This document shows positions 16,548 through 63,757 of a stretch of 64,000 bases of DNA, in pieces. This DNA is from Thermoplasmata archaeon (GTDB taxonomy: Archaea; Thermoplasmatota; Thermoplasmata; Lutacidiplasmatales; UBA184). Below the pieces are notes generated by a model. The model did not search any database. It worked only from the letters and a program-made list of their open reading frames with translations, and had not been told where the DNA came from. The stretch is taken from assembly GCA_022750335.1 (NCBI GenBank), contig JAKIVX010000004.1, positions 5,162 through 69,161 on the forward strand, written 5' to 3'. The translations under genes were made by a program, and so were the position numbers. Each line of letters opens with the position of its first letter. The first letter of the stretch is position 1.

Positions 16548-16552
16548 ACCGG

Positions 16553-17758: not shown

Positions 17759-17873
17759 GCCGGTCGAACGGCCCCGATTAGATAGGATTCCCCCCGCGCG
17801 CCGCGGGCGCTCCCGATCGCGGGCCGGATGGGTTAAGAGATAGAAATGGCCTCAACTCCGGAGGAGGGAGAGG

Positions 17874-18659: not shown

Positions 18660-18661
18660 CG

Positions 18662-21569: not shown

Positions 21570-21570
21570 C

Positions 21571-21993: not shown

Positions 21994-22004
21994 GGACCGA
22001 CCGT

Positions 22005-26984: not shown

Positions 26985-27533
26985 GTGGTCAAGATCCGCA
27001 TCGAAAACGTCGTCGCATCCACCTCACTCGGAGACGCTCTTGACCTCCAATCGATCGCGCTCGGTCTCGACGGGGCCGAGTACGAACCGGAGCAGTTCCC
27101 CGGACTCATCTACCGATTGAAACAGCCCAAGACCGCGATCCTGTTGTTCCGCTCGGGCAAAGTGGTATGCACCGGAGCGAAGAGCATGAACGAGGTGGAG
27201 ACTTCGATTCACACGGTGGCGACCCAGATCAAGAAGGGGGGCCAAAAGATCACTCTCAAACCCAAGATCGAGGTCCAGAACATCGTCGCGAGTTCGGACC
27301 TGGAGAGCTCGATCAACCTGAACGCCATCGCCGTCACCCTCGGACTCGACCGGGTCGAGTACGAGCCCGAACAGTTCCCCGGGCTGGTCTGCCGCCTCGA
27401 CGCCCCGAAGGTGGTCGTCCTTCTCTTTGGCAGCGGAAAGCTGGTCTGCACCGGCGCCCGGAAACCCGCCGATGTCCAGGTCGCCGTCCAGAAGATCACG
27501 AAGGAACTCCAAGGCGCCGGCCTCTTGCGCTAG
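26985..27533 (+). CDS. tbp: TATA-box binding protein
   Basis: 182 aa with two direct repeats (NVVASTSLGDALDLQSIAL..EYEPEQFPGLIYRL / NIVASSDLESSINLNAIAV..EYEPEQFPGLVCRL). Confidence 0.97.
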   Translation: MVKIRIENVVASTSLGDALDLQSIALGLDGAEYEPEQFPGLIYRLKQPKTAILLFRSGKVVCTGAKSMNEVETSIHTVATQIKKGGQKITLKPKIEVQNIVASSDLESSINLNAIAVTLGLDRVEYEPEQFPGLVCRLDAPKVVVLLFGSGKLVCTGARKPADVQVAVQKITKELQGAGLLR

Positions 27534-27545
27534 CCCGACATCTCG

Positions 27546-28430: not shown

Positions 28431-29062
28431 AGCGGCGAGCGGTCCTCGTCGCGCTCGAAGGGATCGACGGGGCCGGAAAGACCACCCTCATCCGCCCGCT
28501 CGCCGCGGCCCTCCGCCGAAGGGGTCTACGGGTGATCCTCCGACGCGAACCCACGGACCCCGCGTTGGGGCAGCTCGCCCAGCGGACGAGCGTGCGGGAC
28601 CCGTGGTCCGGAGCGGTGTACTTCATGCTCGACCGTTTTCTCGCGCGACCGGCCCTCGAGCACGACCTCGGGCGTGCGGACGTCGTGATCACCGACCGGT
28701 CCGTTTACTCGACGCTCGCCTACCAAGGAAGCGCGCTCCCGACTGCGGCGCTCCGTCGACTGGAGGAGCTGGCACCACGGGCCACGGTGGTTCCCGACCG
28801 CGTGATCCTCCTCGATCTCTCCCCGAAGGACGCTCTCCGGCGCCTGGGTCGGCGCGGGCGGATCCGAGGGCCCCTCGAGCGACGGCGCACACTGACCCGA
28901 GTCGCCCGCCGGTATCGTCGGCTCGCACGTCAGGGTCGATGGAGGGTGGTCGCTGCGGGTCGCCCGACCCGGGAGCTGGTCGCTTCGATCGTCGCGGACC
29001 TGGTCGAGACAATCCCCCCCTTATCGGCCCACCGTCGCGGGCCGCGGCGACAGCGAACCTGA
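28427..29062 (+). CDS. tmk: thymidylate kinase (copy 1)
   Basis: Starts at MKRRAVLVALEGIDGAGKTT (ATGA overlap with tatD). Also REPTD, ITDRSVYSTLAYQG and VILLDLSP. Confidence 0.85.
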   Translation: MKRRAVLVALEGIDGAGKTTLIRPLAAALRRRGLRVILRREPTDPALGQLAQRTSVRDPWSGAVYFMLDRFLARPALEHDLGRADVVITDRSVYSTLAYQGSALPTAALRRLEELAPRATVVPDRVILLDLSPKDALRRLGRRGRIRGPLERRRTLTRVARRYRRLARQGRWRVVAAGRPTRELVASIVADLVETIPPLSAHRRGPRRQRT

Positions 29063-29088
29063 TATCGGGGACGTTCGTCCCCGCCGCG

Positions 29089-30246
29089 GTGACGACACCC
29101 GCCCGCATCCTGGTCAAGGAGGAAACGCTCGACCCGGCCTACCTGCCACCGCGACTGGTCCGGCGGGAGAAAGAGCTCCAGCTCCTCACGAAACGCTACC
29201 GCGAAGCCCTCGCGAAGGGGCTCGCGTTCCATCTCCTCCTGACGGGAGGTGTCGGCAGCGGGAAGACGGCGCTCGCCCGTCGGCTCGGTACCGACCTCGA
29301 ACGCACCGGTCGGGGGAACGAGCTGCCCGTCCGGGCCGCCTACATCAATTGTTGGCGGCGCGCGAGCGACCGCACCGTCATGCTGGATCTCCTCCGGGCG
29401 GTGGACGTCTCGCTGCCGGACCGCGGGTATAGCTTGTCCGAAATGATGGACGTCTTCGAACAGGGACTCCGCCGTCGACCCCAGCACCTCGTCGTCCTCT
29501 TGGACGAGGCGTCGGCCCTGGTCAAGCAGGAGACCAAGCTCGTCTACCTGCTCTCCCGCTCCCACGAGGTCGAACTCGGGTCGATCTCGCTACTGCTCGT
29601 GGCCGCCGAGGACCTCCTGCCCTACATGGACGCCCCGAGTCGGTCCAGCTTCGGGGTCACCCACCGGCTCTCGCTCGCCCCCTACTCGCGCGAGGACCTC
29701 GGGGAGATCCTCGCCTCACGCGCGGAGATCGCGCTCCGGCCGGGGAGCTTCGACCGCGAAGTGCTGGACCAGATCGCCCGCATCGCGGTCCCCAACGGCG
29801 ACGCGCGCTTCGCGCTCGAGATCCTCGGCGGGGCCGCCCACGTCGCGGAGGACGCGGGGTCGGACGTCCTCCTCGCGGAGCACATCCGCCGCACCAAGGG
29901 TTCGCTCATGCCGACCTTGTCCGAGTCACAGCTCGAGAGCTTGTCGACGAACGAGCTCGGCGTACTCCTCGCCCTCTCCCGTTCGCTCCGGAGCCGCGGC
30001 GCGGCGGTCGCGAGCCAGAAGCTCCGGACCGCGCACACCGCACTTCTCGAGGAGCTGGGGGGGTCACCGATGAGCCGCACGACCTTCTGGCGCACCCTGA
30101 AGGAACTCGAGCGGGACGGTTTGGTCACGCTCGAGGCTGCCGGTACCGGGGAGTCGAGCCGGGTCGCGATGGACGACCTGCCCGCGAGCTACCTCGCGAC
30201 GCTGGTCGAGGAGCGGCTCGGCCGGGGTCGCGCGCGGAAACGCTAA
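29089..30246 (+). CDS. cdc6: Orc1/Cdc6 replication initiator
   Basis: LPPRLVRREKELQLL, Walker A LLTGGVGSGKT, Walker B VVLLDEA, and a C-terminal winged helix (TFWRTLKELERDGLV). Start placed at GTG 29089, just after the tmk stop, so it is approximate. Confidence 0.9.
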   Translation: MTTPARILVKEETLDPAYLPPRLVRREKELQLLTKRYREALAKGLAFHLLLTGGVGSGKTALARRLGTDLERTGRGNELPVRAAYINCWRRASDRTVMLDLLRAVDVSLPDRGYSLSEMMDVFEQGLRRRPQHLVVLLDEASALVKQETKLVYLLSRSHEVELGSISLLLVAAEDLLPYMDAPSRSSFGVTHRLSLAPYSREDLGEILASRAEIALRPGSFDREVLDQIARIAVPNGDARFALEILGGAAHVAEDAGSDVLLAEHIRRTKGSLMPTLSESQLESLSTNELGVLLALSRSLRSRGAAVASQKLRTAHTALLEELGGSPMSRTTFWRTLKELERDGLVTLEAAGTGESSRVAMDDLPASYLATLVEERLGRGRARKR

Positions 30247-31553: not shown

Positions 31554-32966
31554 TCACCGCGGACCGAGCCAGGGCAGTCGCCGGCCGAGGAGTTCTCGGA
31601 GCGCCTCCGAAAGGGCCGGGCCGTCCGTTTCGGAGGTCAGGGGTCGTACCGTAACCTGGCCCGGTTCCTCGGGAGTCAGGTCGCGCCCGAGGGAGAGTCG
31701 TGGGAGGACCGCGCGCACGACCGACTCGACGTCACGGTCCTTCCGTCGCGTGTCGACCCCGAGGCTCCCGTCCGCACGGACATACGGGCCCTGGAGGACG
31801 GGGGCGTCCGGAGCGACCCACTTATCCAGGAACTGGCCGACCCGATCGAGACCCGCGGGGGGGCCGTCTTGCGCCCGAACGGCCGGCCGGTGGGAGTGCC
31901 CTACCTCGACTGCGACCAGCACGCGCTCCGGTTCGACCGCCGACGACGACCCGATCACCTCGAACCCCGACCGCGCGACCTCCTCGGCGATCGCGCGCTC
32001 GGCTTTCCGGACCTGGGGGTAAAGCGTGTCGTCGACGAGGTCCGGGCGTGGCAGGGAAACGACCGTAACGTGCGTTCCCCGCTCGTGGGTGCGCGCGAGG
32101 GCTTCCTCTCGCGAGAACGGGGCCGCCGTGTGAACCTCGAACCACCGATCCGCCGGCTGGTCGAGGTAGGCCCCGGCAGCGAGGATCAGTAGGGCCAGGT
32201 TTCGCCGGGAGAGGGCGCTCGCGACGTTCCGGTGGGAGTCCACCGGATCGGCCAGGATGAGCGCGACCTCCGCGGGAAGGCGCGGCGGGTCTCGTGCGGG
32301 CTCCTCGATCCGAACCGGTATCCGCCAACTGCGGGCGGCTCGGAGGAGTCCCTGGAGGGACCCGAAGCGCAGGACCATGAGCTCGACGAGGTAGCCCGAA
32401 CACCCCTCGGTGCGCGATTCCGATCCATAGACCCCGAGCGCCCGGAAGAACTGCTTCGCGAGTCGGACCTGGGCGACCAGCTCAGGCGTCTCGCGTGCGG
32501 CGAGATACTCCTGGTGGAACGGAGTACGATCGACCGGTGAGAGGGGCTGCGACGGGTCGGTGATTGCGAATCCGGGCACGGCGTCCACGTTGAAACCGTC
32601 GAAACGACCCCGCAGGTACGGGTGCTCCGCGTACCGGGTCTCCGTCTCGGTCAGGACCGAATTCCCGAGCGCCAGACCCTCTTCGCGGAGTCGCTCCCGT
32701 GAGAGGTCGGGCGGGAAGAGGAGAAACAGGTCGACGTCGAGTCGATCGGAGAGGTACGTTCCCCGCGCCGCGCTGCCGGCCACCAGCGCCCGCACGAGAG
32801 GGCTCGCTCGTTCCTGCGCGACCGCTCGGACGCGCTCGACGAGCGCGAGGCGGACTCGGGCCACTCGCTCCTGCATCTCGGGAGTGGGGGCGATCTGGGC
32901 GGAGACCTGGGCTTCGAGCCGGTCGGCCTCCGGATTCGACGCGGCCGGGCGGGAGGAGCCCTTCAC
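31554..32966 (-). CDS. cca: CCA-adding enzyme (archaeal class I tRNA nucleotidyltransferase)
   Basis: VAGSAARGTYLSDRLDVDLFLLFP, YAEHPYLRG, DRTPFH and GVYGSESRTEGCSGYL. Start at GTG 32966 (alternative ATG 32876). Confidence 0.9.
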   Translation of the reverse strand: MKGSSRPAASNPEADRLEAQVSAQIAPTPEMQERVARVRLALVERVRAVAQERASPLVRALVAGSAARGTYLSDRLDVDLFLLFPPDLSRERLREEGLALGNSVLTETETRYAEHPYLRGRFDGFNVDAVPGFAITDPSQPLSPVDRTPFHQEYLAARETPELVAQVRLAKQFFRALGVYGSESRTEGCSGYLVELMVLRFGSLQGLLRAARSWRIPVRIEEPARDPPRLPAEVALILADPVDSHRNVASALSRRNLALLILAAGAYLDQPADRWFEVHTAAPFSREEALARTHERGTHVTVVSLPRPDLVDDTLYPQVRKAERAIAEEVARSGFEVIGSSSAVEPERVLVAVEVGHSHRPAVRAQDGPPAGLDRVGQFLDKWVAPDAPVLQGPYVRADGSLGVDTRRKDRDVESVVRAVLPRLSLGRDLTPEEPGQVTVRPLTSETDGPALSEALRELLGRRLPWLGPR

Positions 32967-33078
32967 ACGCGCCCGAGCCCGTACCGGGGGATGAACCTTC
33001 GGCTGGAGGTCGGGGCGAGATGACGGCACCGTTATCGGATAATTCGTCCTAGGAAGGGCGGAGGATGACACCGGCCGA

Positions 33079-34134
33079 ATGGCGCATCCCGCCGTCCTGT
33101 TTCGCGCGTTGGCCGGAGAGAAGGTCCAGTGCACCGCCTGCGCCCGATACTGCACCATTCCCGCGGGATCGCACGGCTTTTGCTTCGTTCGGAAGAACGT
33201 GGCGGGGCACCTCGAACTCCTCTCCTACGGGCGAGCGGCGGCCGTCCAGGTCGACCCGGTCGAGAAAAAGCCGCTCTCGCACTTCCACCCCGGGACCCGG
33301 GTCTATTCGATCGGCACCGTCGGCTGCAACTGGCGATGCCTGTACTGCCAGAATGCGGAGATCTCGCAAGAGAAGGAGATCGTCGGACGGCCCCTCTCGC
33401 CGCAGCAGGCCGTGGCGGGAGCCCTCCGGTACGGGTGCTCGGGCGTCACCTTCACGTACAACGAACCGACCATCTTCATCGAGTACGCGCTGGACGTGAT
33501 CCGGGAGGCCCGGGCCGCGGGACTCTATGCCAACTTCGTCACGAACGGCTACATGACCCCCGAGGCGACGGAGTTGCTCGGCCCGCACCTCTCGGCGATC
33601 AGCGTCGATTTCAAGGGCAGCGGGGAGCCCGGGTTCCTGCGGAAGTACGTCTCGGCGAAAGGACCCGAACCGATCTGGTCCACGATGGCCGACCTTCACC
33701 GCCGTGGGGTCCACGTCGAGGTCACCGACCTCATCGTCCCCGACGTGGGCGAGTCGGTGGAAGCGACCCGGCTTCTCGCCCGGCGGGTCCGGGACGACCT
33801 CGGAGCGTCGACCCCCTTCCACCTCCTGCGGTTCCATCCCGACTACAAGATGATGGATGTCCCCGAGACGCCGGTCCGCACCCTCGAAAAGCTGCACGCC
33901 GTCGTCAAAGCCGAGGGACTCGAGTACGTCTACCTCGGGAACGTCTGGGGGCATCCGCTCGAGCACACGTATTGCCCCGCCTGCGGCGCGATCGCGGTGC
34001 GGCGCTACGGGTTCACGATCCAGGCCTGGAACCTCGACGCACAGAACCGGTGCCGCGCGTGCGGCCACGCGATCCCGATCGTCGGTCGCCCGCCGCCCGA
34101 GTACGTACCGAGCTTCGCAACCCCCGTCGCGTGA
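33079..34134 (+). CDS. AmmeMemoRadiSam system radical SAM enzyme
   Basis: VQCTACARYCTIPAGSHGFCFVRKN, VDPVEKKPLSHF and CNWRCLYCQNAEISQ, plus a C-terminal CPACG..CRACGH ribbon. Confidence 0.85.
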   Translation: MAHPAVLFRALAGEKVQCTACARYCTIPAGSHGFCFVRKNVAGHLELLSYGRAAAVQVDPVEKKPLSHFHPGTRVYSIGTVGCNWRCLYCQNAEISQEKEIVGRPLSPQQAVAGALRYGCSGVTFTYNEPTIFIEYALDVIREARAAGLYANFVTNGYMTPEATELLGPHLSAISVDFKGSGEPGFLRKYVSAKGPEPIWSTMADLHRRGVHVEVTDLIVPDVGESVEATRLLARRVRDDLGASTPFHLLRFHPDYKMMDVPETPVRTLEKLHAVVKAEGLEYVYLGNVWGHPLEHTYCPACGAIAVRRYGFTIQAWNLDAQNRCRACGHAIPIVGRPPPEYVPSFATPVA

Positions 34135-36030: not shown

Positions 36031-38046
36031 ATGACCGACCTCGATACGACGTGCATCAACACCTTGCGGTTCCTCGCCGTCGATGCGGTCGAGACCGCAA
36101 AATCCGGCCACCCCGGACTGCCGCTCGGAGCGGCTCCGATGGCGTACGTACTGTGGGACCGGTTCCTCCACCACAATCCGGCCGACCCCGCCTGGTCCAA
36201 TCGAGACCGATTCGTCCTCTCGGCCGGGCACGGCTCGGCGCTCCTCTACGCCCTCCTCCACACGACCGGGTACGACCTCCCGGTCGATGAATTGAAGCGA
36301 TTCCGTCAGTGGGGAAGCCGGACTCCGGGTCATCCGGAGCACGGACTTACTCCCGGGGTGGAAGCGACGACCGGCCCGCTCGGCCAGGGGTTCGCGATGG
36401 GCGTCGGGATGGCGATCGCCGAGCGCCACCTCGCTTCCGTCTTCAACCGGGACGGATTCCCTCTCGTCGACCACTTCACGTACGGCATCGTCTCGGACGG
36501 GGATCTCATGGAGGGTATTGCCTCCGAGGCGGCTTCGCTCGCAGGCACGCTCGGTCTCGGCAAGCTGGTCTATCTGTACGACGACAACCACATTTCTCTC
36601 GAGGGCCCGACCGAATGGGCGTTCACGGAGAGCGTGCCGGACCGGTTCGCCGCCTACGGCTGGCAGGTCCTGACGGTACCCGACGGCAACGACCTCGCGG
36701 CTATCGACGTTGCCCTCCGGGCGGCCCGGTCCGACCTGCGACGCCCCTCCCTCATCTGCGTGCGCACCCACATCGGCTACGGGAGCCCGGTCCAGGACAC
36801 GCGCGAAGCGCACGGCGAAGCACTCGGCCCGGTCAACCTGAGGGCCACCAAAGAAAAGCTCGGGTGGCCCCTCGCACCGACCTTCCTCGTTCCCGAGGAA
36901 GCCCGCCGACATTTGCTCGAGGCCCGGGACCGCGGAGCTACCTGGCAGCGCGAGTGGGACGTCCTGCGAACGCGCTTCGCGTCCGCGCACCCGGAAGAAG
37001 TGCGCACGTTCGATGGCCAGATCTCGGGACAGTTGCCCGACGGCTGGGACTCCGGCCTGCCGGTCTTCCCGCCGAGCTCCGGTCCGATGGCGACCCGGGA
37101 CGCTTCCCAGAAGATCCTGGAATCGTTCGTCGGCCGATTCCCGGCGTTGCTCGGGGGCGCGGCCGATCTCTCGCCGTCGACCAAGACCCTCCTGCCGGGT
37201 TCGCCCGACTACTCGGCCGTGGACGGGGTCGGGCGGAATTTCCATTTTGGAGTCCGCGAGCACGCCATGTCCGCGATCCTGAACGGCATGGCGCTCCATG
37301 GGGGGCTCGTGCCGTACGGAGGCACCTTCCTCACGTTCTCCGATTATGCACGGGGCGCCCTCCGTCTGGCCGCCCTGCAGCAAACCCACACCATCTTCGT
37401 CTACACGCACGACAGTATCGGGATGGGCGAGGATGGGCCCACGCATCAACCCGTCGAGCAGTTGGTGAGCCTCCGCGCGATCCCGGGATTCACCGTCCTT
37501 CGACCCGCGGACGCAAACGAGACCGCGGCCGCGTGGCGCGTCGCGGTGCTACGGAAGGGACCGACGGCCCTCGTGTTCAGCCGGCAGAAGCTCCCGGTCC
37601 TCGACCCGGCCACGCACCCCATCGCGGCCGGCGTTCCTCGGGGGGCGTACGTCCTCTCCGAGGCGCACGGAGGGACCCCGGAAGTCATTCTGCTAGCGAC
37701 TGGTTCCGAGGTCTCCCTCGCTCTCGAATCGCAGACTCAGCTCGCCCGAGACGGGATCGCGGCGCGCGTTGTGTCGTTCCCGAGTTGGCGACTGTTCGAT
37801 GAGCAGCCGACCTCCTACCAGGAGTCGGTACTCCCCACCGGCATCCCGAAGTTGTCGGTCGAAGCGGGAGTGACGCTCGGATGGTCCCAGTATGTCGGGG
37901 CCGAGGGCGCGTCCATCGGGGTGGACCGCTTCGGGGCGTCGGCGCCCGGACCGGTCGTGCAACGGGAGCTCGGCCTCACCGTCGACCATGTCGTCGAGGT
38001 CGCCCGACGTCTGGTGCATTCCCCCACGACCGGGAGGACCCCGTGA
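36031..38046 (+). CDS. tkt: transketolase (single-polypeptide, full length)
   Basis: 671 aa with [43 protein letters not shown], the TPP motif GDLMEGI, and [15 protein letters not shown]. Confidence 0.97.
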
Positions 38047-40799
38047 CGCGGTTAAGCGACCTGGTCGCCGTCGGTCAATCTCCGTGGCTCGACTACATCC
38101 GGCGCAGCATGCTCGCCAGCGGTGAACTCCGCCGAATGGTCGAGGTCGACGGGATCACCGGCATCACGATCAACCCGACGATCTTCGACAAGGCGATCGC
38201 GGGGAGCGAGGACTACGACTCCGCCCTCCAGGCCCTGCTGGCGAAGGAACCGACCCTCTCTCCCGCGCAACTCTACGAACGCCTGGCCGTGGAGGACGTC
38301 ACCCGCGCGGCCGATGTGCTCCGTCCCGTGTACGACCGCACGCACGGGGTCGACGGCTTCGTCAGTCTGGAGGTCGCTCCGGGCCTCGCGCACGACACCG
38401 CCGGAACGATCGCCGAAGGTCGGCGCCTGTGGGACGCGGTCGACCGACCAAATCTCCTGATCAAGGTGCCCGCGACCCCGGAGGGAATCCCCGCGATCGA
38501 GGAATTGCTCGCCCAGGGGGTAAACGTGAACATTACGCTCATGTTTTCGCTCGCGCACTACGAGGCCGTCGCGCAAGCCTACCTCCGCGGGCTCGCGCGT
38601 ACGCCGGAACCGACGCGCCTCGCCTCCGTGGCCTCCGTCTTCGTCAGCCGCATCGACTCCGCCGTGGACAAGTTGCTCGACGCTTCGCCGGCGCCGGAGG
38701 CGAAACGGCTCCGCGGTAAGATTGCGATCGCCAACTGCCGGGTCGTCTACGCGCGCTTCTTGGAGATCTTCCACGGACTCGGCTTTGCGCCGTGGATCGG
38801 CAAGGGCGCGCACCCCCAGCGCCCACTCTGGGCCAGCACGAGCACGAAGGACCCCGCCTACCGGGACACGCTCTACGTCGAGGAGCTGATCGGCCCCGAG
38901 ACCGTGGATACGATCCCGCCGGCCACCCTCACGGCGTTCGAGGACCATGGGGTCATCCGCCGCGACGCGGTCGCGGGCGGACTCTCCGAGGCCCGGGCCG
39001 AGCTCACCCTCGCCGCGACGATCGGGATCGACCTCGCGAAGGTCACGGACGACCTCCAAGTCGAGGGAGTCGCGTTGTTCTCGGCTTCGTATGACCACCT
39101 GCTGAGCTCGCTCGCGGCGAAGAAGGCGGCGCTGTTGGCGAGCGCCGTTGACCCCCTGACGGGGAGTCTCGGCGTGGAGGGGGCCCGCGTGACGGCTCGC
39201 CTCACCGAATGGCAGGCCGCCCGATTCGGGGAACGCTTCTGGCGCCTCGACCCGACCCTGTGGCCCGCGGCTCCCCCGAAGGAAGTCCCGGACCGGATGG
39301 GTTGGCTCTCCCTCCCCGAGCGCATGCATCACGAGGTCGGAGAGCTGACCGCGTTCGCCGAAGAGATCCGGGCCGAAGGGATTCGACACGTGGTCGTGCT
39401 GGGGATGGGCGGGTCGAGCCTCGCGCCGGACGTGTTCGCCCGAGTCTTCGGGCATAGGTCGGGATACCCCGAACTGCACGTCCTCGACAGCACCCACCCG
39501 GAGGCGGTGGCGTCGCTCTCCCGACGGATCGACCCCGTCCGGTCGCTGTTCCTCGTCTCGAGCAAATCCGGCACGACCATCGAGCCCCTGTCGTTCTACC
39601 GGTACTTCTGGGAGGCCCTGCAGGCCGCGGGCGCTCCGCCCGCCCGGCACTTCGTCGCCATCACCGACCCCGGAACCCCGCTCGACCAGCTCGCAAAGGA
39701 CAAAGGATTCCGCGCGGTGTTCCGCGCCCTCCCGACGGTGGGAGGACGGTACTCGGCCCTGACGCACTTCGGGCTCGTGCCGGCAGCGCTCGCGGGCGTC
39801 GAGCTCGGCACGCTCCTAGACCGGGCGCGGACGATGACCGAGGCCTGCGGCGCCGACATCCGGGTGGCAGAGAATCCCGGCCTTCGGTTGGGGGCGATCC
39901 TGGGCGAGTTCGCGACGCACGGCCGCGACAAGCTCACGTTCTACGCCTCGCCGGAGGTCGCCGCGTTCCCCGACTGGGTCGAGCAATTAGTCGCGGAGAG
40001 TACTGGGAAGATCGGCAAGGGTATCGTCCCCGTCGTGGGCGAACCCCGGGTCTCCCCGGACCGGTATCCTCCGGACCGTTTGTTCGTCGAAATCAATTCG
40101 GGAGATTCCACAGACCCGGCCCTCGCCGCCCATACCGCCCGTCTCGTGGCCGCGGGTCATCCGGTCGTGCGGTTGCGCCTCTCTGACCCCCTCGGCCTCG
40201 GTCAGGAGTTCTTCCGGTGGGAGCTCGCCGTGGCCGCTTCGGGCGCGGTCCTCGGGATCGACCCGTACGACCAACCGGACGTCGAACTCGCCAAGGAGCT
40301 CGCGCGGGCCTTGATGGCCCACCCATCAGAGTCCGACGGGAGCGCGAACGTTCCGACGGTAACGGTCGCAGACCCCGTGCGGCTCGGCCACGCCACGAAG
40401 GAGTGGACCGACTCCGGACGAACCGGCGACTACGTGGCCATCCAGGCGTACCTCGCGCCGACCGACGTCACCACGCACTCGCTCGAACTGCTGCGCGCCC
40501 GGATCCTGGACCGTCAGGGGGTAGCGACGACCCTGGGGTATGGCCCCCGCTTCCTCCATTCTACCGGACAGCTGCACAAGGGAGGTCCCGACAGTGGCCG
40601 CTTCCTCCAGATCGTGGACTCGCCCCGGCACGACCTCGCGGTGCCGGAGTCGGGCTACACGTTTGGTCAGCTCATCCGGGCGCAATCCCTGGGCGATTTC
40701 CAGGCGCTGATGCAAAAGCACCGTCGGGTGCTCCGGGTGGACCTTGGGGCGGACGTCCCGGGCGGCCTGATGCGCCTCACCGAGGCCCTCGATGGGTAA
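38043..40799 (+). CDS. bifunctional transaldolase / glucose-6-phosphate isomerase fusion
   Basis: GTGA overlap with tkt. The N-terminal ~370 aa are transaldolase ([33 protein letters not shown]). The C-terminal ~550 aa are PGI-like ([35 protein letters not shown]). Confidence 0.85.
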
Positions 40800-41406
40800 G
40801 GTCTCAGCGTTGTTCTGGGACGTGGGCGGCGTGCTCCTCACCAACGGCTGGGACCAGGAGGGCCGCTCCGCGGCCGCCGCGCGGTTCCACCTAGACCTCG
40901 AGGAACTCGAACGCCGGCATTGGCGCGTGGCGGAGGCGTTCGAAACCGGTGGCCTCGACCTCGACCGGTACCTGGCCGAGACCGTGTTCGACGAGCCCCG
41001 CTCGTTCACGCCGGCCGAGTTCGTCGAATTCATGCACTCCCGCTCCCAACCGTACGAGTCGGCCCTGGCGTGCGCTCGCTCGTTCCGGGAGGGCGGACGG
41101 TACGTCCTGACCGCCCTCAACAATGAATCCCGAGAACTGAACGAGTATCGGGTCGCGACGTTCCACCTCCGGGAGATCTTCCCGTTCTTCCTCAGCTCCT
41201 GTTACACCGGGAGACGCAAACCCAGTCCCGACGCTTTCCGGTTCGCCCTTCAAGTCACCCAATGTGCCCCCGACGAGGCGCTGCTCCTGGACGATCGGCG
41301 TGAGAACGTCGACGCCGCGGCCCAGCTCGGACTCCGCACCCTCTGGGTGCAGGACCCGGAGCGGGTCCGGGAAGAGCTGGCCACCGCCGGGATCGTCGCG
41401 GGGTGA
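40792..41406 (+). CDS. HAD-superfamily hydrolase (phosphatase)
   Basis: DVGGVL motif I, LNNES motif II, and LLLDDRRENVDAA motif IV. 8-nt overlap with tal-pgi. Confidence 0.75.
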   Translation: MGKVSALFWDVGGVLLTNGWDQEGRSAAAARFHLDLEELERRHWRVAEAFETGGLDLDRYLAETVFDEPRSFTPAEFVEFMHSRSQPYESALACARSFREGGRYVLTALNNESRELNEYRVATFHLREIFPFFLSSCYTGRRKPSPDAFRFALQVTQCAPDEALLLDDRRENVDAAAQLGLRTLWVQDPERVREELATAGIVAG

Positions 41407-41414
41407 GGAGAAGA

Positions 41415-42326
41415 ATGATGGAACTGGGAATGGTCGGACTCGGCAAGATGGGCGGCAACATGACCGTACGACTCGTTCGGGGCGGCCACAAGGTCGTGGG
41501 CTACGCCCGTAACCCCGCGGTCGTCAACGTCGTGGTCCAGCAGGGCGCGGCCGGGGCGACGTCCCTCGCGGACCTCGTCCGGCAACTGGCGCCGCCCCGC
41601 GTCCTCTGGCTGATGATCCCCTCGGGAGATCCCGTCGATCAGACGCTCGCCCAGCTGAAACCCCTCCTCGCCCCCGGCGACTTGATCGTCGACGGAGGCA
41701 ACTCCTACTACCGTGACTCCCTCCGCCGTTCCGCCCTCGTCACCAGCTGGGGATTCCGGTACGTGGACGTGGGCACGAGCGGAGGCATCTGGGGGCTCCA
41801 GGAAGGGTACTCGATGATGGTCGGAGGGGATCCGGTCGATGTCGAGCGGATCCGCCCCATCCTCGAGACCCTCGCCCCCAGCCCCACCACGGGTTGGGGT
41901 CGCATGGGGCCGGTGGGCTCCGGTCACTTCGTCAAGATGGTCCACAACGGGATCGAGTACGGACTCATGCAGGCCTACGCCGAAGGGTTCGCGGTCCTGC
42001 AGGCCAAGTCGGAGTTCGCCCTCGACCTCCACCAGATCGCCCAAGTGTGGCGCTACGGGAGCGTAGTCCGCTCCTGGCTCCTCGAACTGACGGAGTCCGC
42101 GCTCGCCGACAACCCCACCCTGAAGGGGATCGAGCCCTGGGTCGCCGACTCGGGAGAGGGTCGATGGACCGTCACGGAAGCGATGGACCTCAACATCCCG
42201 GCCCCGGTGATCACGCTCGCCCTCCAGCAACGGCTGCGCTCGCGAGAGACCGACCCGTTCACGGAGAAGCTGCTCGCGATGATGCGCAACAAGTTTGGCG
42301 GGCACGAAGTCAAGACGGAGAGTTGA
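41415..42326 (+). CDS. gnd: 6-phosphogluconate dehydrogenase, decarboxylating (short ~300 aa form)
   Basis: MMELGMVGLGKMGGNM, GGNSYY, SGGIWG and GSGHFVKMVHNGIEYG. A GGTGAGGAG Shine-Dalgarno-like run lies upstream of ATG 41415. Confidence 0.9.
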   Translation: MMELGMVGLGKMGGNMTVRLVRGGHKVVGYARNPAVVNVVVQQGAAGATSLADLVRQLAPPRVLWLMIPSGDPVDQTLAQLKPLLAPGDLIVDGGNSYYRDSLRRSALVTSWGFRYVDVGTSGGIWGLQEGYSMMVGGDPVDVERIRPILETLAPSPTTGWGRMGPVGSGHFVKMVHNGIEYGLMQAYAEGFAVLQAKSEFALDLHQIAQVWRYGSVVRSWLLELTESALADNPTLKGIEPWVADSGEGRWTVTEAMDLNIPAPVITLALQQRLRSRETDPFTEKLLAMMRNKFGGHEVKTES

Positions 42327-42328
42327 CG

Positions 42329-43786
42329 ATGCCGGCCCCCGCCGCCGAACCCCACCTGTTCGTCGTGTTCGGCGCGACGGGGGACCTCATGCAGCGCAAG
42401 CTGCTCCCCGCGCTCTTTCACCTGCGCGAACAGGGACTTTTCCCGGCCGGGAGCCTCATCCTCGGAGTCGCCCGCCACCCGCTCGACGACGCGACCTTCC
42501 GCACCACGTCCGCCCAATCGCTCGTGTCGGCCGTGCCGGACCGAGCGGCGGGCGCCCCGGCGTTCTGTGCGGCGACCGTCTTCTACTACGGGCTCACCGC
42601 CGAGACCGCGGACGGGTATCGCGCCCTCCGGGGTCGGATCGAACAGCTGGAGACGGAGCACCACCTCTCCGGAAACCGGATCTTTTACCTCGCCCTCCCG
42701 CTCGAGGCGTTCGGTCCCACGCTGGAGGGACTGGGTGGCGCGGGGCTGAACCGGGGGCCGGGCTGGACGCGCGTCGTCATTGAGAAGCCGTTCGGCCGGG
42801 ACCTGCGCTCCGCCGAGGCCCTCAACCGCATCGCCCACCAGCACTTCGAGGAGAAACAGCTCTACCGGATCGACCACTACCTCGGGAAAGAGACGGTCCA
42901 GAACCTGCTCGTTTTCCGATTCGCGAACGCTTTCGTCGAGTCCGACTGGAACCGGGAGCGCGTGGAACAGGTGGAGATCACCGTGGCCGAGAGTCTCGGG
43001 GTCGAGGGCCGGGCGGGGTACTATGAGACCTCGGGGGCGCTCCGGGACATGATCCAGAACCACGTGACCCAGGTCCTCGCGCTGGTCGCGATGGAGCCCC
43101 CCGCCCGCCGGAACGAGGACGACATCCGGGACGAGAAGGTCAAGGTGCTCCGCAGCGCACAAGCCCTCGGACCGGACGACGTCGTTCGGGGCCAGTACAC
43201 GGCTGGGACGATCGCCGGGACCCCCGTGCCGGGGTACCGCGAGGAACCGGGGGTCTCATCGACCTCGACCACCGAGACCTACCTCGCGCTCCGGCTCAAG
43301 ATCGCCAACTGGCGCTGGCAAGACGTCCCCTTCTTCCTCCGCACCGGTAAACGCCTGCCCGAGAAATCGAGTCGCGTGGTGGTGACCTTCAAGGCCCCTC
43401 CCGTCTCCTTCTTCCAGAACGAAAGTGAGTACCGCCAAAGTCCCGACCGGCTCACGATCCTCATCCAACCCGAGGAGGGGTTCGAGATCGCCTTCGAGAT
43501 CAAGGTCCCGGGGCGGGAGATGCGGGTTCAAACGCATCGAATGAAATTCCACTACGCGGACGTGTTCGGTCCCCTCCCCGACGGCTACGAAATGCTCGTC
43601 CAGGACGTCATGATCGGGGACGCGAGCCTGTTCGTGCGGGCCGACGAGGTCGAGGAGTCGTGGCGGCTCTACGCGCCGATCCTCGAGCACCCGACCCCGT
43701 TGGTGTTCTACGCCGCGGGCTCCGACGGGCCCGAGTCCGCGCAGAAGCTGGTCGAGGGATGGGGGCACCGATGGAGCGCGGACTAG
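42329..43786 (+). CDS. zwf: glucose-6-phosphate 1-dehydrogenase (classical Zwf)
   Basis: FVVFGATGDLMQRKLLPAL, IEKPFGRDL, RIDHYLGKE and the YE..GA.RDMIQNH block. Starts 2 nt after the gnd stop. Confidence 0.95.
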   Translation: MPAPAAEPHLFVVFGATGDLMQRKLLPALFHLREQGLFPAGSLILGVARHPLDDATFRTTSAQSLVSAVPDRAAGAPAFCAATVFYYGLTAETADGYRALRGRIEQLETEHHLSGNRIFYLALPLEAFGPTLEGLGGAGLNRGPGWTRVVIEKPFGRDLRSAEALNRIAHQHFEEKQLYRIDHYLGKETVQNLLVFRFANAFVESDWNRERVEQVEITVAESLGVEGRAGYYETSGALRDMIQNHVTQVLALVAMEPPARRNEDDIRDEKVKVLRSAQALGPDDVVRGQYTAGTIAGTPVPGYREEPGVSSTSTTETYLALRLKIANWRWQDVPFFLRTGKRLPEKSSRVVVTFKAPPVSFFQNESEYRQSPDRLTILIQPEEGFEIAFEIKVPGREMRVQTHRMKFHYADVFGPLPDGYEMLVQDVMIGDASLFVRADEVEESWRLYAPILEHPTPLVFYAAGSDGPESAQKLVEGWGHRWSAD

Positions 43787-44548: not shown

Positions 44549-45325
44549 TCAGTCGGAAGTGGGACGGGGACGTCGACGCGCCCGCGGCCGCGGGTGTCGG
44601 GCCGGTTCGAACGCGTCCGGTCCGCTCGTGGGGAACCCCGGCCAACCGGAACCTCCCCAGAGTCGGATACCCCCCACGATCGCTTCCCGGTTGTCCCCCC
44701 GCCGGACCCCCGGCAGCAAACGGTCGAGTTTGCGGACATTCCCCCCGCCGAGGATGACCTCGTCCGGCTCGAGGGCGGCCTCGAGGATCTCCACAACGCG
44801 GATGACCTCCTTCTGCCACTTCTTCCGGCCGAGACGTTCGAGGCTCGCTTCGCCGACGTAGTCCTCGAAGGACCGGCCCTTCTTGTACGGCAGATGCGCG
44901 AGCTCCATGGGCAGGAGGCGGCCCTCCACGATCATCGCCGACCCGAGACCGGTGCCGAGACCGAGGAAGAGCAGGCGCCCACCCCGGTAACTTCCCAGCG
45001 CCTGCATCGCCGCGTCGTTGACGATGCGAACGGGGCTCCCGAATGCTTCCTCGAAGTCGAAACCAACCCAGCCTGGGCCGAGATTGTGGGGCTCCCGCGC
45101 GATCTTCCCGTGCACGACCAACCCCGGATACCCGATCGCGATCGCGTCGAACGATTCGCTCTTCAGGATCCGCGAGAGGCCCCGGACCATCCGCTCTGGT
45201 GTGAGATTGGCGCCGGAGGCGATCCGGTGTTCTCGGGGATTGTCCGAGAACGCCGCTTTGACGTGACTCCCGCCGACGTCCAAAACCAGGATGCGGGAGG
45301 GCCGATCGACAGTAGCCGGGCTCAT
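44549..45325 (-). CDS. ROK-family glucokinase (polyphosphate/ATP glucokinase-like)
   Basis: ILVLDVGGSHVK, VNDAAMQALG and FLGLGTGLGSAMI. Convergent on the PPP operon. Confidence 0.75.
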   Translation of the reverse strand: MSPATVDRPSRILVLDVGGSHVKAAFSDNPREHRIASGANLTPERMVRGLSRILKSESFDAIAIGYPGLVVHGKIAREPHNLGPGWVGFDFEEAFGSPVRIVNDAAMQALGSYRGGRLLFLGLGTGLGSAMIVEGRLLPMELAHLPYKKGRSFEDYVGEASLERLGRKKWQKEVIRVVEILEAALEPDEVILGGGNVRKLDRLLPGVRRGDNREAIVGGIRLWGGSGWPGFPTSGPDAFEPARHPRPRARRRPRPTSD

Positions 45326-50851: not shown

Positions 50852-52582
50852 GTGACGGTTCCTGCCGAGGTTCGGACCCGCGCGCTGCGTCTCGCTCTCG
50901 AGAACGCGGTCGCGCACGACGGGGCCGCGCGCGTCGAGCCGATCGTCGGGCGTCTCCTCGCGACGGACCCCACGCTCCGGCCCCTGGCAGCCGAATTGCG
51001 GGACCTGGTGTCGGCCGTGGTCGCGGACGTCCTCGCCATCCCGGGACCGGAGCTGGCCGACCGCCTCGCGCAACTGGGCGGCCCGGAGGCCGCACGTCCC
51101 CGGGAGGCGGCCAGCACGGGGGGCGATTTCCCGGACCTTGTCGGGGCCGTCCCAGGAAAGGTCGTGCTCCGGCTCGCCCCGTTCCCCAGCGGCGCTCTCC
51201 ACATCGGCCACGGCCGAATGCTCTTCATCAACCAGCATTACCGGGAGCAGTACCGGGGCAAGATCTACCTCGTCTTTGACGACACGATCGGTTCGGAGGA
51301 GAAGCGGGTCGAGACCGAGTTTTTCGGATTGATCGAGGAGGACCTCGCGTCCGCCGGGGTTCGGCCGGATGCGGTCTACTACAAGTCCGACCGGATCCCC
51401 AACTTCTATCCGTGGGCCCGTCGGGTCATCGACAAGGGCGGCGCCTACGTCTGCACTTGTCCGGCCGAGCTCCTGCGCGAGAACCGGGCGCACGGAGTCG
51501 CGTGCGCCCACCGGACGCAGACGCACGACGAGACGGTGGAAGAGTGGGAGCGGATGTTGGCGAACGCCTACGGGCCGGGGGAGGCGGTCTTGCGCCTGCG
51601 TACCAATCTCGCGGACCCCGACCCCGCCTTCCGCGACCGGGTGCTGCTCCGCATCAGCGACATCGACCACCCCCGGGTGGGGACGAAGTACCGGATCTGG
51701 CCGATGCTCGAGTTCTCGTGGGCGGTAGACGACATCGAGCTCGGGATCACGCACGTCATCCGCGGCAAGGACCTCGTCATCGAGGACCGAATGCAACGGT
51801 ACATCTGGGACCTCCTCGGGATCACCGGCCCGCCGTTCCTGCACTGGGGCATCCTGCGGGTGCGGGAAGCCAAGGTGGCGAAGAGCAAGGCCTACCGTGA
51901 GGTAAAGTCGGGCCAGTTCGACGGGTGGGCGGACCCACGGACCTGGTCCCTCCGATCTCTGGACCGCCGGGGAATCTCGATGGAGGCCCTCCGCGCGTTC
52001 ATCCTCTCCTTCGGCATGTCCCTGTCGGACATCGAGGTACCCGCCGAGACGCTCTACTCCGAGAACCGAAAACGCATCGACGCGACCACGGTCCGGCGCG
52101 CGTTCGTCGCCGACCCGGTCCGAGTGGAGGTGGAGGCGTTTCCCGACGGTCTGGAGACCGTGGTCCTGGCCAACCATCCCGAGCGAGCCGAACTCGGAAC
52201 GCGCCGCGTGCCCACGGGGCCCGAGTTCTTCCTCGCCCGTCGGGACCTCGAAGGAAAGGGCGGGACCGAAGTTCGCCTCAAGGATCTCATCAACATCGAG
52301 CTTCCGAGCACGGTCCCGGCGCCGGGGCAACCGCTCCGAGCCCGATTCACCAGCCGCGAGAATAAACGGATCCCGCGACTTCAGTGGGTGGGCGCCCAGG
52401 GCGCACTCCCGGTCGACATCCTGGGCATCGAGGGCGAGCACACGGCGGGCCTGGGGGAGGCCACCCTCGCGGAAGCGAAGCCTCGGGACATCCTCCAGTT
52501 CGAACGGGTCGGCTTCGTTCGCGTCGAGCAGAATTGGGTTCCGGGCACGAGTCCCCTTCGGGTCGCGTTCGGCCATCCCTGA
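50852..52582 (+). CDS. gltX: glutamate--tRNA ligase (archaeal/eukaryal type)
   Basis: RLAPFPSGALHIGHG (HIGH), WPMLEFSWAVDDIELGITHVIRGKD, and VAKSK (KMSKS-like). 576 aa. Confidence 0.92.
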   Translation: MTVPAEVRTRALRLALENAVAHDGAARVEPIVGRLLATDPTLRPLAAELRDLVSAVVADVLAIPGPELADRLAQLGGPEAARPREAASTGGDFPDLVGAVPGKVVLRLAPFPSGALHIGHGRMLFINQHYREQYRGKIYLVFDDTIGSEEKRVETEFFGLIEEDLASAGVRPDAVYYKSDRIPNFYPWARRVIDKGGAYVCTCPAELLRENRAHGVACAHRTQTHDETVEEWERMLANAYGPGEAVLRLRTNLADPDPAFRDRVLLRISDIDHPRVGTKYRIWPMLEFSWAVDDIELGITHVIRGKDLVIEDRMQRYIWDLLGITGPPFLHWGILRVREAKVAKSKAYREVKSGQFDGWADPRTWSLRSLDRRGISMEALRAFILSFGMSLSDIEVPAETLYSENRKRIDATTVRRAFVADPVRVEVEAFPDGLETVVLANHPERAELGTRRVPTGPEFFLARRDLEGKGGTEVRLKDLINIELPSTVPAPGQPLRARFTSRENKRIPRLQWVGAQGALPVDILGIEGEHTAGLGEATLAEAKPRDILQFERVGFVRVEQNWVPGTSPLRVAFGHP

Positions 52583-56831: not shown

Positions 56832-57731
56832 TCATTCCAGGACCTCGAAAGTCTGCCCTTCCGTGGGCAGGTGTTCGAGCAGCACGTCCCGGGTCGACTC
56901 GATCGTTCGGCCGAGGGGAAACCGACCGATGATGACCCCTCCGAACCTCTGGAAGACCCGGGTCGTGTGCAGCGTGATGCAATGGCCGTCGTAGAGCGGT
57001 AGCCCCGCAACGTCCGGGTCGTGACCGCGGAGGAAGATGCGAATTCCCGAGGCCCGAAAGAGTCGCTCGAGGTCGCGACCACCCCACGTGGGGACGGAGG
57101 CACGCCGATACCGGGACGCGTCGCATTGACCCCATACGATCTCGGTCAGTCGATCGTCGCTGACCTCATCGAAGGCATGGGCCCACTCGTCCGACGAGCC
57201 AACAAACGGGAACCCTGCGTGGGCGAGATAGATCTTTTCGGGGAGTACCGCTGCGAGGGGACCGCGCTCGAGGAGCGCCTCGATCCGGGTACACCGGGTC
57301 GAGTCCGGTCCCCAGAGCGCGTCGACCTCTTCGGGCAGGTCGTGCGGGTCGGTGGGGATTCGACGAGTCGTTTCGTGGTTCCCCTGGATCAGATAGACCT
57401 GGTTGGGCGCTTGGGCGGCCAGCGACAGCAGGTGGAGGGCGTTCGCGACCGAACCTTGGGCACAGTCGGGAGGGGCCCGGTCGACGTAGTCGCCGAGGCC
57501 CACGAGGAGCCGTGGAATTCCCCCCGCGAGGAAGCGTCGTTCGACCTCGAGGGTGGACCGCCAATCCCCGTGCGTGTCGCCAAAGACGATGGCCTCCCGG
57601 AGCGCAGCGGTGGGGATGCTGACGAACGGCGGGTGAACCGGAACCGTACGCTCCAGGAGGTCGAGCAACGCATCGGCCTCCCCCTCGTCCAACTGCAGGA
57701 TCTCTTCCGGCGTCGGCACATTTACCGCCAT
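56832..57731 (-). CDS. metallophosphoesterase / PPP-family Ser/Thr phosphatase
   Basis: FGDTHGDW, GDYVDR and QGNHE. Confidence 0.8.
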   Translation of the reverse strand: MAVNVPTPEEILQLDEGEADALLDLLERTVPVHPPFVSIPTAALREAIVFGDTHGDWRSTLEVERRFLAGGIPRLLVGLGDYVDRAPPDCAQGSVANALHLLSLAAQAPNQVYLIQGNHETTRRIPTDPHDLPEEVDALWGPDSTRCTRIEALLERGPLAAVLPEKIYLAHAGFPFVGSSDEWAHAFDEVSDDRLTEIVWGQCDASRYRRASVPTWGGRDLERLFRASGIRIFLRGHDPDVAGLPLYDGHCITLHTTRVFQRFGGVIIGRFPLGRTIESTRDVLLEHLPTEGQTFEVLE

Positions 57732-57784
57732 TGTCGGTCAACCTCGGCGAACGCTTCGGCCGGGCAAAGATGCGGGGGGCCGGA

Positions 57785-57819
57785 GTTCCCGGCCGCCGGT
57801 CGACGTGACCGGCCGGCCC
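57785..57819 (-). other. 35-nt tRNA intron at T-loop position 59/60 of tRNA-Leu(UAG)
   Basis: The intron is GGGCCGGCCGGTCACGTCGACCGGCGGCCGGGAAC. The T-stem acts as the outer helix. TTCA(54-57) pairs with GGGA in the intron (2 Watson-Crick, 1 G-U, 1 mismatch). Bulges are AA|G and AC|T, with a strong intron-internal helix. Confidence 0.7.
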
Positions 57820-57867
57820 TTTGAACCGGCGTATGCCCTAGGCAACAGGGTCCTAAGCCCTGCCTCG

Positions 57868-57894
57868 GTAGCCCCACCGGCGTTTGCCGGCGGA
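57868..57894 (-). other. 27-nt tRNA intron in the D-loop of tRNA-Leu(UAG), about position 21/22
   Basis: The intron TCCGCCGGCAAACGCCGGTGGGGCTAC contains an 8-bp hairpin. GGCC (nt 19-22) pairs with GGCT (nt 46-49) as the 4-bp central helix (3 Watson-Crick, 1 G-U). The flanking 3-nt bulges are AA|T and AC|C. Confidence 0.65.
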
Positions 57895-57945
57895 TTGGCC
57901 GAACTGGAGCACCCCCGCACTGGTATCATGGAATCGCCCGCGGAG

Positions 57946-58052
57946 TAGCCCCGGCAGGAGTTTCGGACCACGGGCGGGCCCACCCCCGCGGCATTCGAAC
58001 CTGCGTCGCGAGATCCAGAGTCTCGCATGATTGGCCACTACACTACGGGGCT
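57946..58052 (-). tRNA. tRNA-Gln (anticodon CUG) with a non-canonical T-loop intron (73 nt after in-silico splicing)
   Basis: The spliced sequence is AGCCCCGTAGTGTAGTGGCCAATCATGCGAGACTCTGGATCTCGCGACGCAGGTTCGAA+TCCTGCCGGGGCTA. It has an A1-U72 acceptor AGCCCCG/CGGGGCT, anticodon loop CTCTGGA and T-arm GCAGG-TTCGAAT-CCTGC. Confidence 0.85.
57960..57993 (-). other. 34-nt tRNA intron at T-loop position 59/60 of tRNA-Gln(CUG)
   Basis: The intron is TGCCGCGGGGGTGGGCCCGCCCGTGGTCCGAAAC. TTCG(54-57) pairs perfectly with intron CGAA (nt 29-32). The 3-nt bulges are AA|T and AC|T, and the T-stem is the outer helix, which is canonical BHB geometry. Confidence 0.8.
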
Positions 58053-58076
58053 ACGGCGCGAGCCAGCGGTGCGCGG

Positions 58077-58085
58077 TTGATAAAC
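58077..58085 (-). promoter_or_regulatory. TATA box candidate for the tRNA-Gln/tRNA-Leu unit
   Basis: Minus strand gtttatcaa. The tttatc core ends 27 nt upstream of tRNA-Gln position 1. Confidence 0.45.
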
Positions 58086-58233
58086 ATTCCTCCGAATTTC
58101 GACCCTCTGGTCCCGTAGCTCTAAGTCGAACGACCTCGACAGAACTCACGACCTCCGAAGCGACGGGGGCTGCTCCCCGCCGGTCGAACGAACCCCTTGG
58201 AAGGGGGCATTACCTTACCGGTGCGATTGGTCC

Positions 58234-63682: not shown

Positions 63683-63757
63683 GGGCACGTAGATCAGCGG
63701 AAGATCGCTGCTTTCGCAAAGCAGAGGTCGGGGGTTCAAATCCCCCCGTGTCCACCA
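63683..63757 (+). tRNA. tRNA-Ala (anticodon CGC), CCA encoded
   Basis: GGGCACGTAGATCAGCGGAAGATCGCTGCTTTCGCAAAGCAGAGGTCGGGGGTTCAAATCCCCCCGTGTCCACCA. It has the G3-U70 identity pair, anticodon loop TTCGCAA and T-loop TTCAAAT. Confidence 0.93.

Follow-up and report, generated by a model that had tools for sequence, protein, structure and literature searches.

A probable T-loop intron at position 59/60 of the tRNA-Gln(CUG) gene in soil Thermoplasmata, and two further introns in the adjacent tRNA-Leu(UAG) gene

The interrupted tRNA-Gln(CUG) gene

The window analysed here is the whole of a 64,000-nucleotide stretch of archaeal DNA (contig JAKIVX010000004.1 of assembly GCA_022750335.1, forward-strand positions 5,162 to 69,161), and its minus strand carries a tRNA-Gln(CUG) gene whose T-loop is interrupted between positions 59 and 60 by 34 extra nucleotides. 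The interrupted gene is real and very likely functional, and we are confident, short of certainty, in reading it as an archaeal tRNA gene interrupted by a 34-nt intron that is spliced out by protein enzymes. The elements of the locus are as follows:

58052..57946, minus strand: whole tRNA-Gln(CUG) gene, exons of 59 and 14 nt with a 34-nt insert at 59/60
57994..58052, minus strand: exon 1, 59 nt, AGCCCCGTAGTGTAGTGGCCAATCATGCGAGACTCTGGATCTCGCGACGCAGGTTCGAA, 3' end GCAGGTTCGAA; tRNA positions 1-59 (acceptor 5' strand, D-arm, CUG anticodon arm, T-stem 5' strand, T-loop nucleotides 54-59)
57960..57993, minus strand: bulge-helix-bulge (BHB) intron at 59/60, 34 nt, TGCCGCGGGGGTGGGCCCGCCCGTGGTCCGAAAC
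57946..57959, minus strand: exon 2, 14 nt, TCCTGCCGGGGCTA; U60, T-stem 3' strand, acceptor 3' strand and A73, CCA not encoded
58077..58090, minus strand: putative promoter box resembling a B recognition element (BRE) and TATA box, GGAATGTTTATCAA, at 25-38 nt before the 5' end of mature tRNA-Gln

The unconstrained minimum free energy (MFE) fold of the 107-mer contains the T-stem, an inner hairpin, a helix of UUCG with CGAA and two 3-nt bulges, AAU and ACU. Intron nucleotide 1 lies in the 5' bulge, nucleotides 2-28 make up the inner hairpin (h'), nucleotides 29-32 (CGAA) pair with U54-G57 to give the 4-bp central helix (H), and nucleotides 33-34 lie in the 3' bulge. The motif is thus of the 3-4-3 kind, with the bulges A58-A59-N1 and N33-N34-U60 placed around a helix of four pairs, and it has the strict hBHBh' architecture, in which the 5-bp T-stem serves as the outer helix (h) and h' carries compensatory changes. 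Removal of the insert at the two bulge sites restores a canonical cloverleaf: ARAGORN reads the spliced 73-mer as a perfect tRNA-Gln(ctg) in which the acceptor stem has 7 bp, the T-stem 5 bp and the T-loop the sequence TTCGAAT, and the 73-mer is colinear with 33 archaeal tRNA-Gln(CUG) genes that have no intron, to which it is identical at 55-68 of 73 positions. Together with the CUG cloverleaf, the A1-U72 pair and A73, both of which can be read from the sequence, mark the product as an archaeal tRNA-Gln; these two features are typical of the archaeal tRNA-Gln used by GatDE.

An exact search with exon 1 returned 87 loci in species-representative genomes, which are without exception metagenome-assembled genomes (MAGs) of Thermoplasmata or Thermoplasmatota from soil or peat, among them Candidatus Lutacidiplasma silvani and UBA184. 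These loci are the relatives referred to throughout, and 85 of them are complete across the tRNA-Gln locus. The matching genomes average 68% guanine plus cytosine (GC) and the window has 67.6%, in agreement with the ~69% published for Lutacidiplasmatales (TMEG), whose genome measures ~2.1 Mb (PMC9287336). The host is a high-GC Thermoplasmata archaeon, Lutacidiplasmatales-like and not a crenarchaeon, and TBP, Cdc6/Orc1 and an archaeal CCA-adding enzyme are all encoded in the window.

The initial annotation had described a tRNA-Gln(CUG) with a 34-nt T-loop insert at 59/60; the sequence is as it stated, and the insert occupies the same site in 85 of the 85 complete loci, measuring 34 nt in 84 and 33 nt in one. 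Exon 2 is invariant in all 85, although it lay outside the search pattern. The inserts themselves comprise 75 distinct sequences, aligned here without gaps, with a mean pairwise identity of 56% (range 29-97%). Structure is kept while sequence drifts, as the covariation across species attests. All four pairs of the central helix are standard in 75/75 sequences, and this helix varies only by A-to-G changes facing the fixed U54 and U55 and by a single C-to-U change facing G57. The nucleotide after A59 may be A, C, G or U among the relatives, while the U preceding CCUGC never changes; because of this variable base and the invariant U60, a one-base ambiguity in the site resolves to 59/60, and the splice sites put forward earlier (AA/T and AC/T) hold. 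In the inner helix, positions 61-87 pair in 75/75 sequences, 62-86 in 58/75 and 63-85 in 67/75; two-sided changes were found in all eight h' pairs tested. The covariation score of h' is 0.254, against 0.156 +/- 0.014 in shuffled alignments (0/500 shuffles reach 0.254), and it also exceeds that of every slid register. Unconstrained MFE folding yields the complete BHB for 36/75 real sequences versus 1/1500 with shuffled introns.

Two side observations concern this intron. Its length is nearly fixed despite the mean identity of 56%, whereas the introns of the neighbouring tRNA-Leu vary in length. Two genomes, SMAG_U15060 (L022 and L059) and clean1967 (L048 and L073), hold two intron-bearing tRNA-Gln(CUG) loci each, with differing introns, which reflects either true duplication or mixed bins.

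The upstream box presumably acts as the promoter. Its majority consensus in the relatives is aAacgTTaataac, and several relatives have ACGTTTATCAAC. Across the 88 upstream sequences (window and relatives), positions -30 and -29 are A or T in 100% of loci, in DNA of ~68% GC, and the conserved TATA box lies at -32..-25, at a fixed distance from tRNA-Gln. Within the limits of the patterns used, the interrupted gene looks like the sole CUG isoacceptor gene in the intron-bearing species, because the patterns for an uninterrupted gene match only other genomes: the uninterrupted T-arm junction sequence is found in 37 further genomes, all of which lack the intron, and the intron-less tRNA-Gln(CUG) pattern (with this acceptor and D-arm) in 33 genomes, none of them among the 87 intron-bearing species. 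It had been suggested in the initial annotation that splicing would then be essential for reading CAG. No intron-less CUG gene turned up in the 87 related species, but we hold the suggestion as not established, because an intron-less tRNA-Gln(UUG), which might read CAG by wobble, is encoded in five high-GC Thermoplasmata loci (L133, L144, L146, L147 and L151; loci not tied to the same species as the intron-bearing genomes).

The neighbouring tRNA-Leu(UAG) gene and other genes of the window

A second tRNA gene, which the initial annotation overlooked, starts 27 nt downstream of tRNA-Gln on the minus strand. It encodes tRNA-Leu(UAG), occupies 148 nt (57918..57771) and contains two BHB introns:

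57919..57945, minus strand: spacer between tRNA-Gln and tRNA-Leu, 27 nt, without a conserved A/T box
57895..57918, minus strand: exon A, 24 nt; acceptor 5' strand, D-stem 5' strand, D-loop to A21
57868..57894, minus strand: intron 1 (D-loop, about 21/22), 27-nt BHB
57820..57867, minus strand: exon B, 48 nt; D-stem 3' strand, UAG anticodon arm, long variable arm, T-stem 5' strand, T-loop nucleotides 54-59
57785..57819, minus strand: intron 2 (59/60), 35 nt, BHB-like
57771..57784, minus strand: exon C, 14 nt; U60, T-stem 3' strand, acceptor 3' strand, A73

Removal of both inserts gives the cloverleaf of an 86-nt class II tRNA-Leu(tag) that ARAGORN accepts, whereas the unspliced sequence and either single splice give nothing; Rfam reports no tRNA in the region even at E up to 10. 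The same structure is present in 76 of the 77 relatives with enough flanking sequence, and the split T-arm signature in 83 of 85 loci. In a structural alignment of 31 sequences, 93.5% of cells pair over the 50 pairs of the structure, against 37-54% in slid registers, and 12 pairs show compensatory change, a number reached by 0/500 shuffles.

For intron 1, RNAalifold predicts the strict hBHBh' unaided (h, bulge, H, bulge and h'). Its central helix joins exon GGCC to intron GGC(C/U), GGCU in the window, and is paired in 31/31 sequences; the bulges are of 3 nt each (AAN and NNC), the inner hairpin covaries, and the outer helix, formed by D-loop nucleotides 16-18 (CUC) and the D-stem 3' strand, is paired in 97.8% of cells. 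One relative (L014, ~900-1040, downstream of its tRNA-Gln) lacks intron 1 while keeping the T-loop intron, and its junction, GGCCAA/CGAGG, is exactly the predicted one; it can be taken as a natural control for the splice site, and would represent either intron loss or the state before the gain. Intron 2 uses the T-stem as its outer helix, and U54-A, U55-G/A and C56-G are paired in 31/31 sequences. A57 never enters a standard pair in any of the 31, the base opposite being G (G129) in 30, and the strict hBHBh' form is accordingly not reached; RNAalifold does not predict this H helix. The inner hairpin of intron 2 has 8 pairs with double changes. Among the relatives, intron 1 measures 24-35 nt and intron 2 32-38 nt, mostly 32 or 35.

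The spacer is 24-36 nt long in the relatives and its sequence is not conserved. Because it is short and has no conserved A/T box, the two tRNAs are probably co-transcribed, with tRNA-Gln as the first cistron. A pattern scan of the window and the 87 loci for further T-arms split at 59/60 returned only the Gln and Leu genes; one candidate, at 44601-44642, was rejected as it has no acceptor stem and lies inside the open reading frame (ORF) of a ROK-family protein. A protein-coding reading of the conserved block 3' of tRNA-Gln (MRGCSS...) was likewise dropped, the block resolving into the tRNA-Leu exons. An intron-less tRNA-Ala(CGC) gene lies at 63683-63757 (plus strand); its synteny with the Gln-Leu pair holds in at least 42 of the related loci, where, as in the window, the tRNA-Ala gene is on the opposite strand at a distance of 3.5-5.6 kb.

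Several other genes of the window bear on tRNA metabolism. A CCA-adding enzyme (PF09249, PF21133, PF01909) is encoded at 31554-33158 on the minus strand, which is consistent with neither tRNA gene encoding CCA. At 50852-52582 (plus strand), 5.4 kb from tRNA-Gln, lies a class I aminoacyl-tRNA synthetase of the Glu/Gln type (PF00749, PF03950); in archaea an enzyme of this type is usually a GluRS that also charges tRNA-Gln before transamidation. A short ThiI-domain protein of 208 aa, encoded at 24391-25017 (minus strand), is possibly a stand-alone tRNA s4U8 sulfurtransferase. The remaining genes touch on central metabolism and replication. A pentose-phosphate cluster at 36031-43786 (plus strand) comprises transketolase, a 972-aa fused transaldolase/phosphoglucose-isomerase, a HAD hydrolase and a glucose-6-phosphate dehydrogenase of the classical type with an N-terminal extension of ~155 residues; among archaea, an oxidative pentose-phosphate branch of bacterial type is uncommon. 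TBP, a TatD-family protein and Cdc6/Orc1 are encoded side by side at 26985-30246, and a replication origin may lie near the TBP and Cdc6 genes. A beta-oxidation set at 5999-23159 (two acyl-CoA dehydrogenases, electron transfer flavoprotein (ETF) alpha, an ETF-QO-like oxidoreductase, enoyl-CoA hydratase, acyl-CoA ligase and thiolase) fits the organoheterotrophy proposed for Lutacidiplasmatales (PMC9287336).

Predicted processing and competing explanations

We infer transcription, co-transcription, cleavage, ligation and the type of endonuclease from sequence. In the precursor, the T-stem would be the outer helix and U54-G57 with intron nucleotides 29-32 the central helix; A58-A59 with intron nucleotide 1, and nucleotides 33-34 with U60, would form the bulges, and the rest of the intron the inner hairpin. 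EndA would cleave each bulge behind its second nucleotide and an RtcB-type ligase would join the exons. The T-loop could take shape and receive its modifications only after ligation, and CCA would be added by the CCA-adding enzyme. tRNA-Gln would come first in a two-tRNA transcript, followed by tRNA-Leu with its two additional BHB introns (about 21/22 and 59/60).

The gene may also be read without splicing. Both ARAGORN and Rfam call an unspliced tRNA-Gln of 73-74 nt at 57980-58053, the latter with 29.5 bits against a gathering threshold of 29, and on this account the downstream CCUGC-CGGGGCUA would be a coincidence. Such a tRNA would have seven non-standard pairs in its acceptor and T stems (Rfam alignment), and its score falls about 26-35 bits short of those of intron-less homologues, which serve as proxies for the covariance-model score of the spliced 73-mer: two Thermoplasmatota tRNA-Gln(CUG) genes, identical to the spliced sequence at 66-68 of 73 positions, score 55.2 and 55.6 bits with the Rfam tRNA model, and a tRNA-Gln(UUG) homologue that matches the spliced sequence in D-arm, T-arm and acceptor scores 64.2 bits. 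Moreover, its 3' end would consist of freely varying intron sequence, whereas the true 3' exon is invariant, and Rfam finds nothing at the tRNA-Gln locus in 15/15 relatives, yet detects the neighbouring tRNA-Ala at 68 bits. We give this reading almost no credence; the unspliced call is an artefact, made because the first intron bases of one subclade happen to resemble the true 3' exon. The expectation of the initial annotation that simple scans mishandle such genes is borne out by this distorted call and by the silence of Rfam in the relatives. Matches of Rfam below threshold in 57700-58120 (dauA, with 25.9 bits where the threshold is 45, and others) were put down to chance in GC-rich hairpins. 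The same resemblance between the 5' part of the window insert (UGCCGCGGGGGUG) and the real 3' exon (UCCUGCCGGGGCUA) is what an attachment-site duplication might leave, and so would suit a decayed pseudogene, or a gene broken by a random insertion or an integration scar, that is never spliced. However, the resemblance is confined to one subclade, and no viral contig was found to carry the uninterrupted T-arm and acceptor sequence of tRNA-Gln. The locus also lacks the marks of a tRNA pseudogene: exon 2 and the TATA box are conserved in 85-88 loci beside an insert of 56% identity, which for all its divergence keeps its site, length and BHB pairing, and no intron-less CUG copy that could replace the gene was found in these species. 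A pseudogene or scar is thus very improbable, and a functional gene with a spliced intron remains the preferred reading.

As to the endonuclease, the alpha4 and alpha'2 EndAs require the strict 3-4-3 motif and act independently of the mature domain (PMC3488258), and relaxed motifs require (alpha-beta)2 or epsilon2 enzymes (PMC3488258, PMC3239211); the EndA of Thermoplasma acidophilum is an alpha'2 enzyme of narrow specificity (PMC6379350). A search with a Methanocaldococcus jannaschii EndA sequence, which matched Methanocaldococcus EndAs at 91% identity, retrieved from Thermoplasmata MAGs a large family of ~350-aa EndAs with the two-repeat order N-C-N-C, several of them on contigs of 68-69% GC, and the EndA of this lineage is likely such a two-repeat protein. 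It could be argued that the intron is real but is removed by a broad-specificity endonuclease, or by some other route, and not by a narrow alpha'2-type EndA. Non-canonical and multiple introns are usually linked with (alpha-beta)2 or epsilon2 enzymes, and this lineage has no fewer than three non-canonical introns, spread over two neighbouring genes of which one holds two. The H helix of tRNA-Leu intron 2 is always mismatched opposite A57 (A-G in 30/31), and among solved structures the MAG EndA matches best the fused M. kandleri beta-alpha construct 5x89 and the alpha subunit of A. pernix, rather than the alpha'2 enzyme of T. acidophilum. Against a broad enzyme, two of the three motifs are strict 3-4-3 hBHBh' in most sequences and the third is off by one H mismatch; the candidate EndAs are single 350-aa N-C-N-C proteins, and in the alignment with A. 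pernix alpha they miss ~10 residues at the presumed position of the crenarchaeal specific loop. On balance we judge removal by a broad enzyme or another route improbable.

Some observations nevertheless have to be set against a tRNA-Gln intron excised by EndA. The geometry had been called textbook in the initial annotation, which is true of the T-stem, the 4-bp UUCG/CGAA helix and the 3-nt bulges of the MFE fold, but the inner helix of the window is imperfect, with one G-C pair beside H followed by a C-U mismatch or a 1-nt bulge. The BHB is absent from the unconstrained MFE fold in 39/75 relatives, whose GC-rich sequences have competing folds. The invariance of exon 1 among the relatives is a product of the search pattern and no independent evidence. 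As for the enzyme, no EndA was found in the window (Pfam scans of 50 ORFs) or in the fetched loci (tblastn, and a hidden Markov model built from the matches), and by comparison of accessions the Thermoplasmata EndA matches correspond to none of the 87 intron-bearing loci.

It is conceivable, though improbable, that the three non-canonical introns of the Gln/Leu pair, and in particular the tRNA-Gln intron with its 34 nt in 84 of 85 species, are kept by selection across the order and are not neutral passengers, the endonuclease being seemingly of narrow specificity. If selected, the introns might shield the T-arm/acceptor attachment site from integrating elements, impose an EndA-dependent order on the maturation of the two-tRNA transcript, or yield small circular RNAs that have functions themselves. 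Regarding integration, the uninterrupted T-arm and acceptor of tRNA-Gln or tRNA-Leu were found on no viral contig, and the idea that these genes are integration targets was set aside. Were selection at work, introns maintained together with a narrow-type enzyme would go against the accepted rule that non-canonical or multiple introns accompany enzymes of broad specificity.

Comparison with known systems

Archaeal BHB introns at non-canonical positions are a known kind, of which the introns of both tRNAs are examples; the novelty lies in the lineage, in the conservation across the order and in the adjacent tRNA-Leu with two introns. A literature search found no paper describing these introns in Thermoplasmata. 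The range of non-canonical (59/60, D-loop) and multiple introns now includes a soil order of Thermoplasmata that is widespread and uncultured. According to reviews, tRNA introns in Euryarchaeota whose endonuclease is of the alpha4 or alpha'2 type are always single and always at the canonical site (PMC4090602). The present introns contradict this positional generalisation, yet they fit the enzyme rule of a strict motif at any position, because their motifs are strict or nearly strict BHBs. With 75 or more natural variants on invariant exons, the tRNA-Gln intron also offers a ready covariation set for BHB recognition. For annotation, the consequence is that ARAGORN and the Rfam tRNA model mis-call or miss two adjacent tRNA genes in this lineage, and claims on codon usage or genome completeness that derive from such tools would report a falsely missing tRNA-Leu(UAG) and a defective tRNA-Gln(CUG). 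The archaeal mode of tRNAscan-SE 2 seeks non-canonical introns by default (PMC8450103); the Lutacidiplasmatales genome paper used tRNAscan-SE 2 and reported tRNAs for all 20 amino acids, introns being unmentioned (PMC9287336).

The canonical 37/38 introns of Haloferax volcanii (tRNA-Trp, tRNA-Met and tRNA-Gln(UUG); PMC7714728) share with the 59/60 intron the 3-4-3 BHB, the insertion between nucleotides six and seven of a 7-nt loop on a 5-bp stem, and the expected enzyme class (strict-BHB EndA plus ligase). They differ in occupying the anticodon loop and not the T-loop; in the present case the T-arm and the elbow cannot form before splicing. A 59/60 intron in haloarchaeal tRNA-Gln(UUG) was considered as a precedent and dropped as unconfirmed, and the haloarchaeal genes matched by the pattern are all uninterrupted at that site; the published length of the haloarchaeal tRNA-Gln(UUG) intron is 31 nt, its position not being given (PMC7714728).

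Thermoproteales too are known to have introns at 59/60. Their multi-intron tRNA genes likewise have introns at non-canonical positions, up to three per gene, and are cryptic to simple finders (PMC8450103, PMC4090602). Their endonuclease, however, is of the (alpha-beta)2 type, many of their motifs are relaxed, and their density reaches 0.84 introns per gene, whereas three introns in two genes were seen here. The permuted tRNAs of Thermofilum pendens and Cyanidioschyzon merolae (PMC3218864) have the same 59/60 break with a BHB junction, but in them the gene halves are permuted and here they are colinear.

Closer in position are the 59/60 introns of ARMAN-2, found in tRNA-Cys with a relaxed motif and in tRNA-Pro, where strict motifs occur at both 53/54 and 59/60 (PMC3239211). 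In both systems protein-spliced introns lie in the T-loop exactly at 59/60, the strict hBHBh' is represented (tRNA-Pro in ARMAN-2) and some genes have several introns. The ARMAN-2 introns, in contrast, belong to a DPANN archaeon, affect other tRNAs, are shorter, and occur together with an epsilon2 EndA of broad specificity in a genome in which 56% of tRNA genes are disrupted; the present system is from Thermoplasmata and probably has a two-repeat EndA. Inserts at 59/60 are found, finally, in tRNA-Gln(UUG) genes of other DPANN archaea (Woesearchaeota, Nanoarchaeota and related groups; L125, L132, L134 and L136). These agree with the Thermoplasmata gene in isoacceptor family and site and in the 3' end of the intron, CGAAA(C/G)/U, which pairs with UUCG. 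They differ in their UUG anticodon, in insert length (30-48 nt) and in intron sequence, which is unrelated; three of these genes do not have the acceptor 5' strand at its expected place, which suggests that they carry further interruptions in their 5' half.

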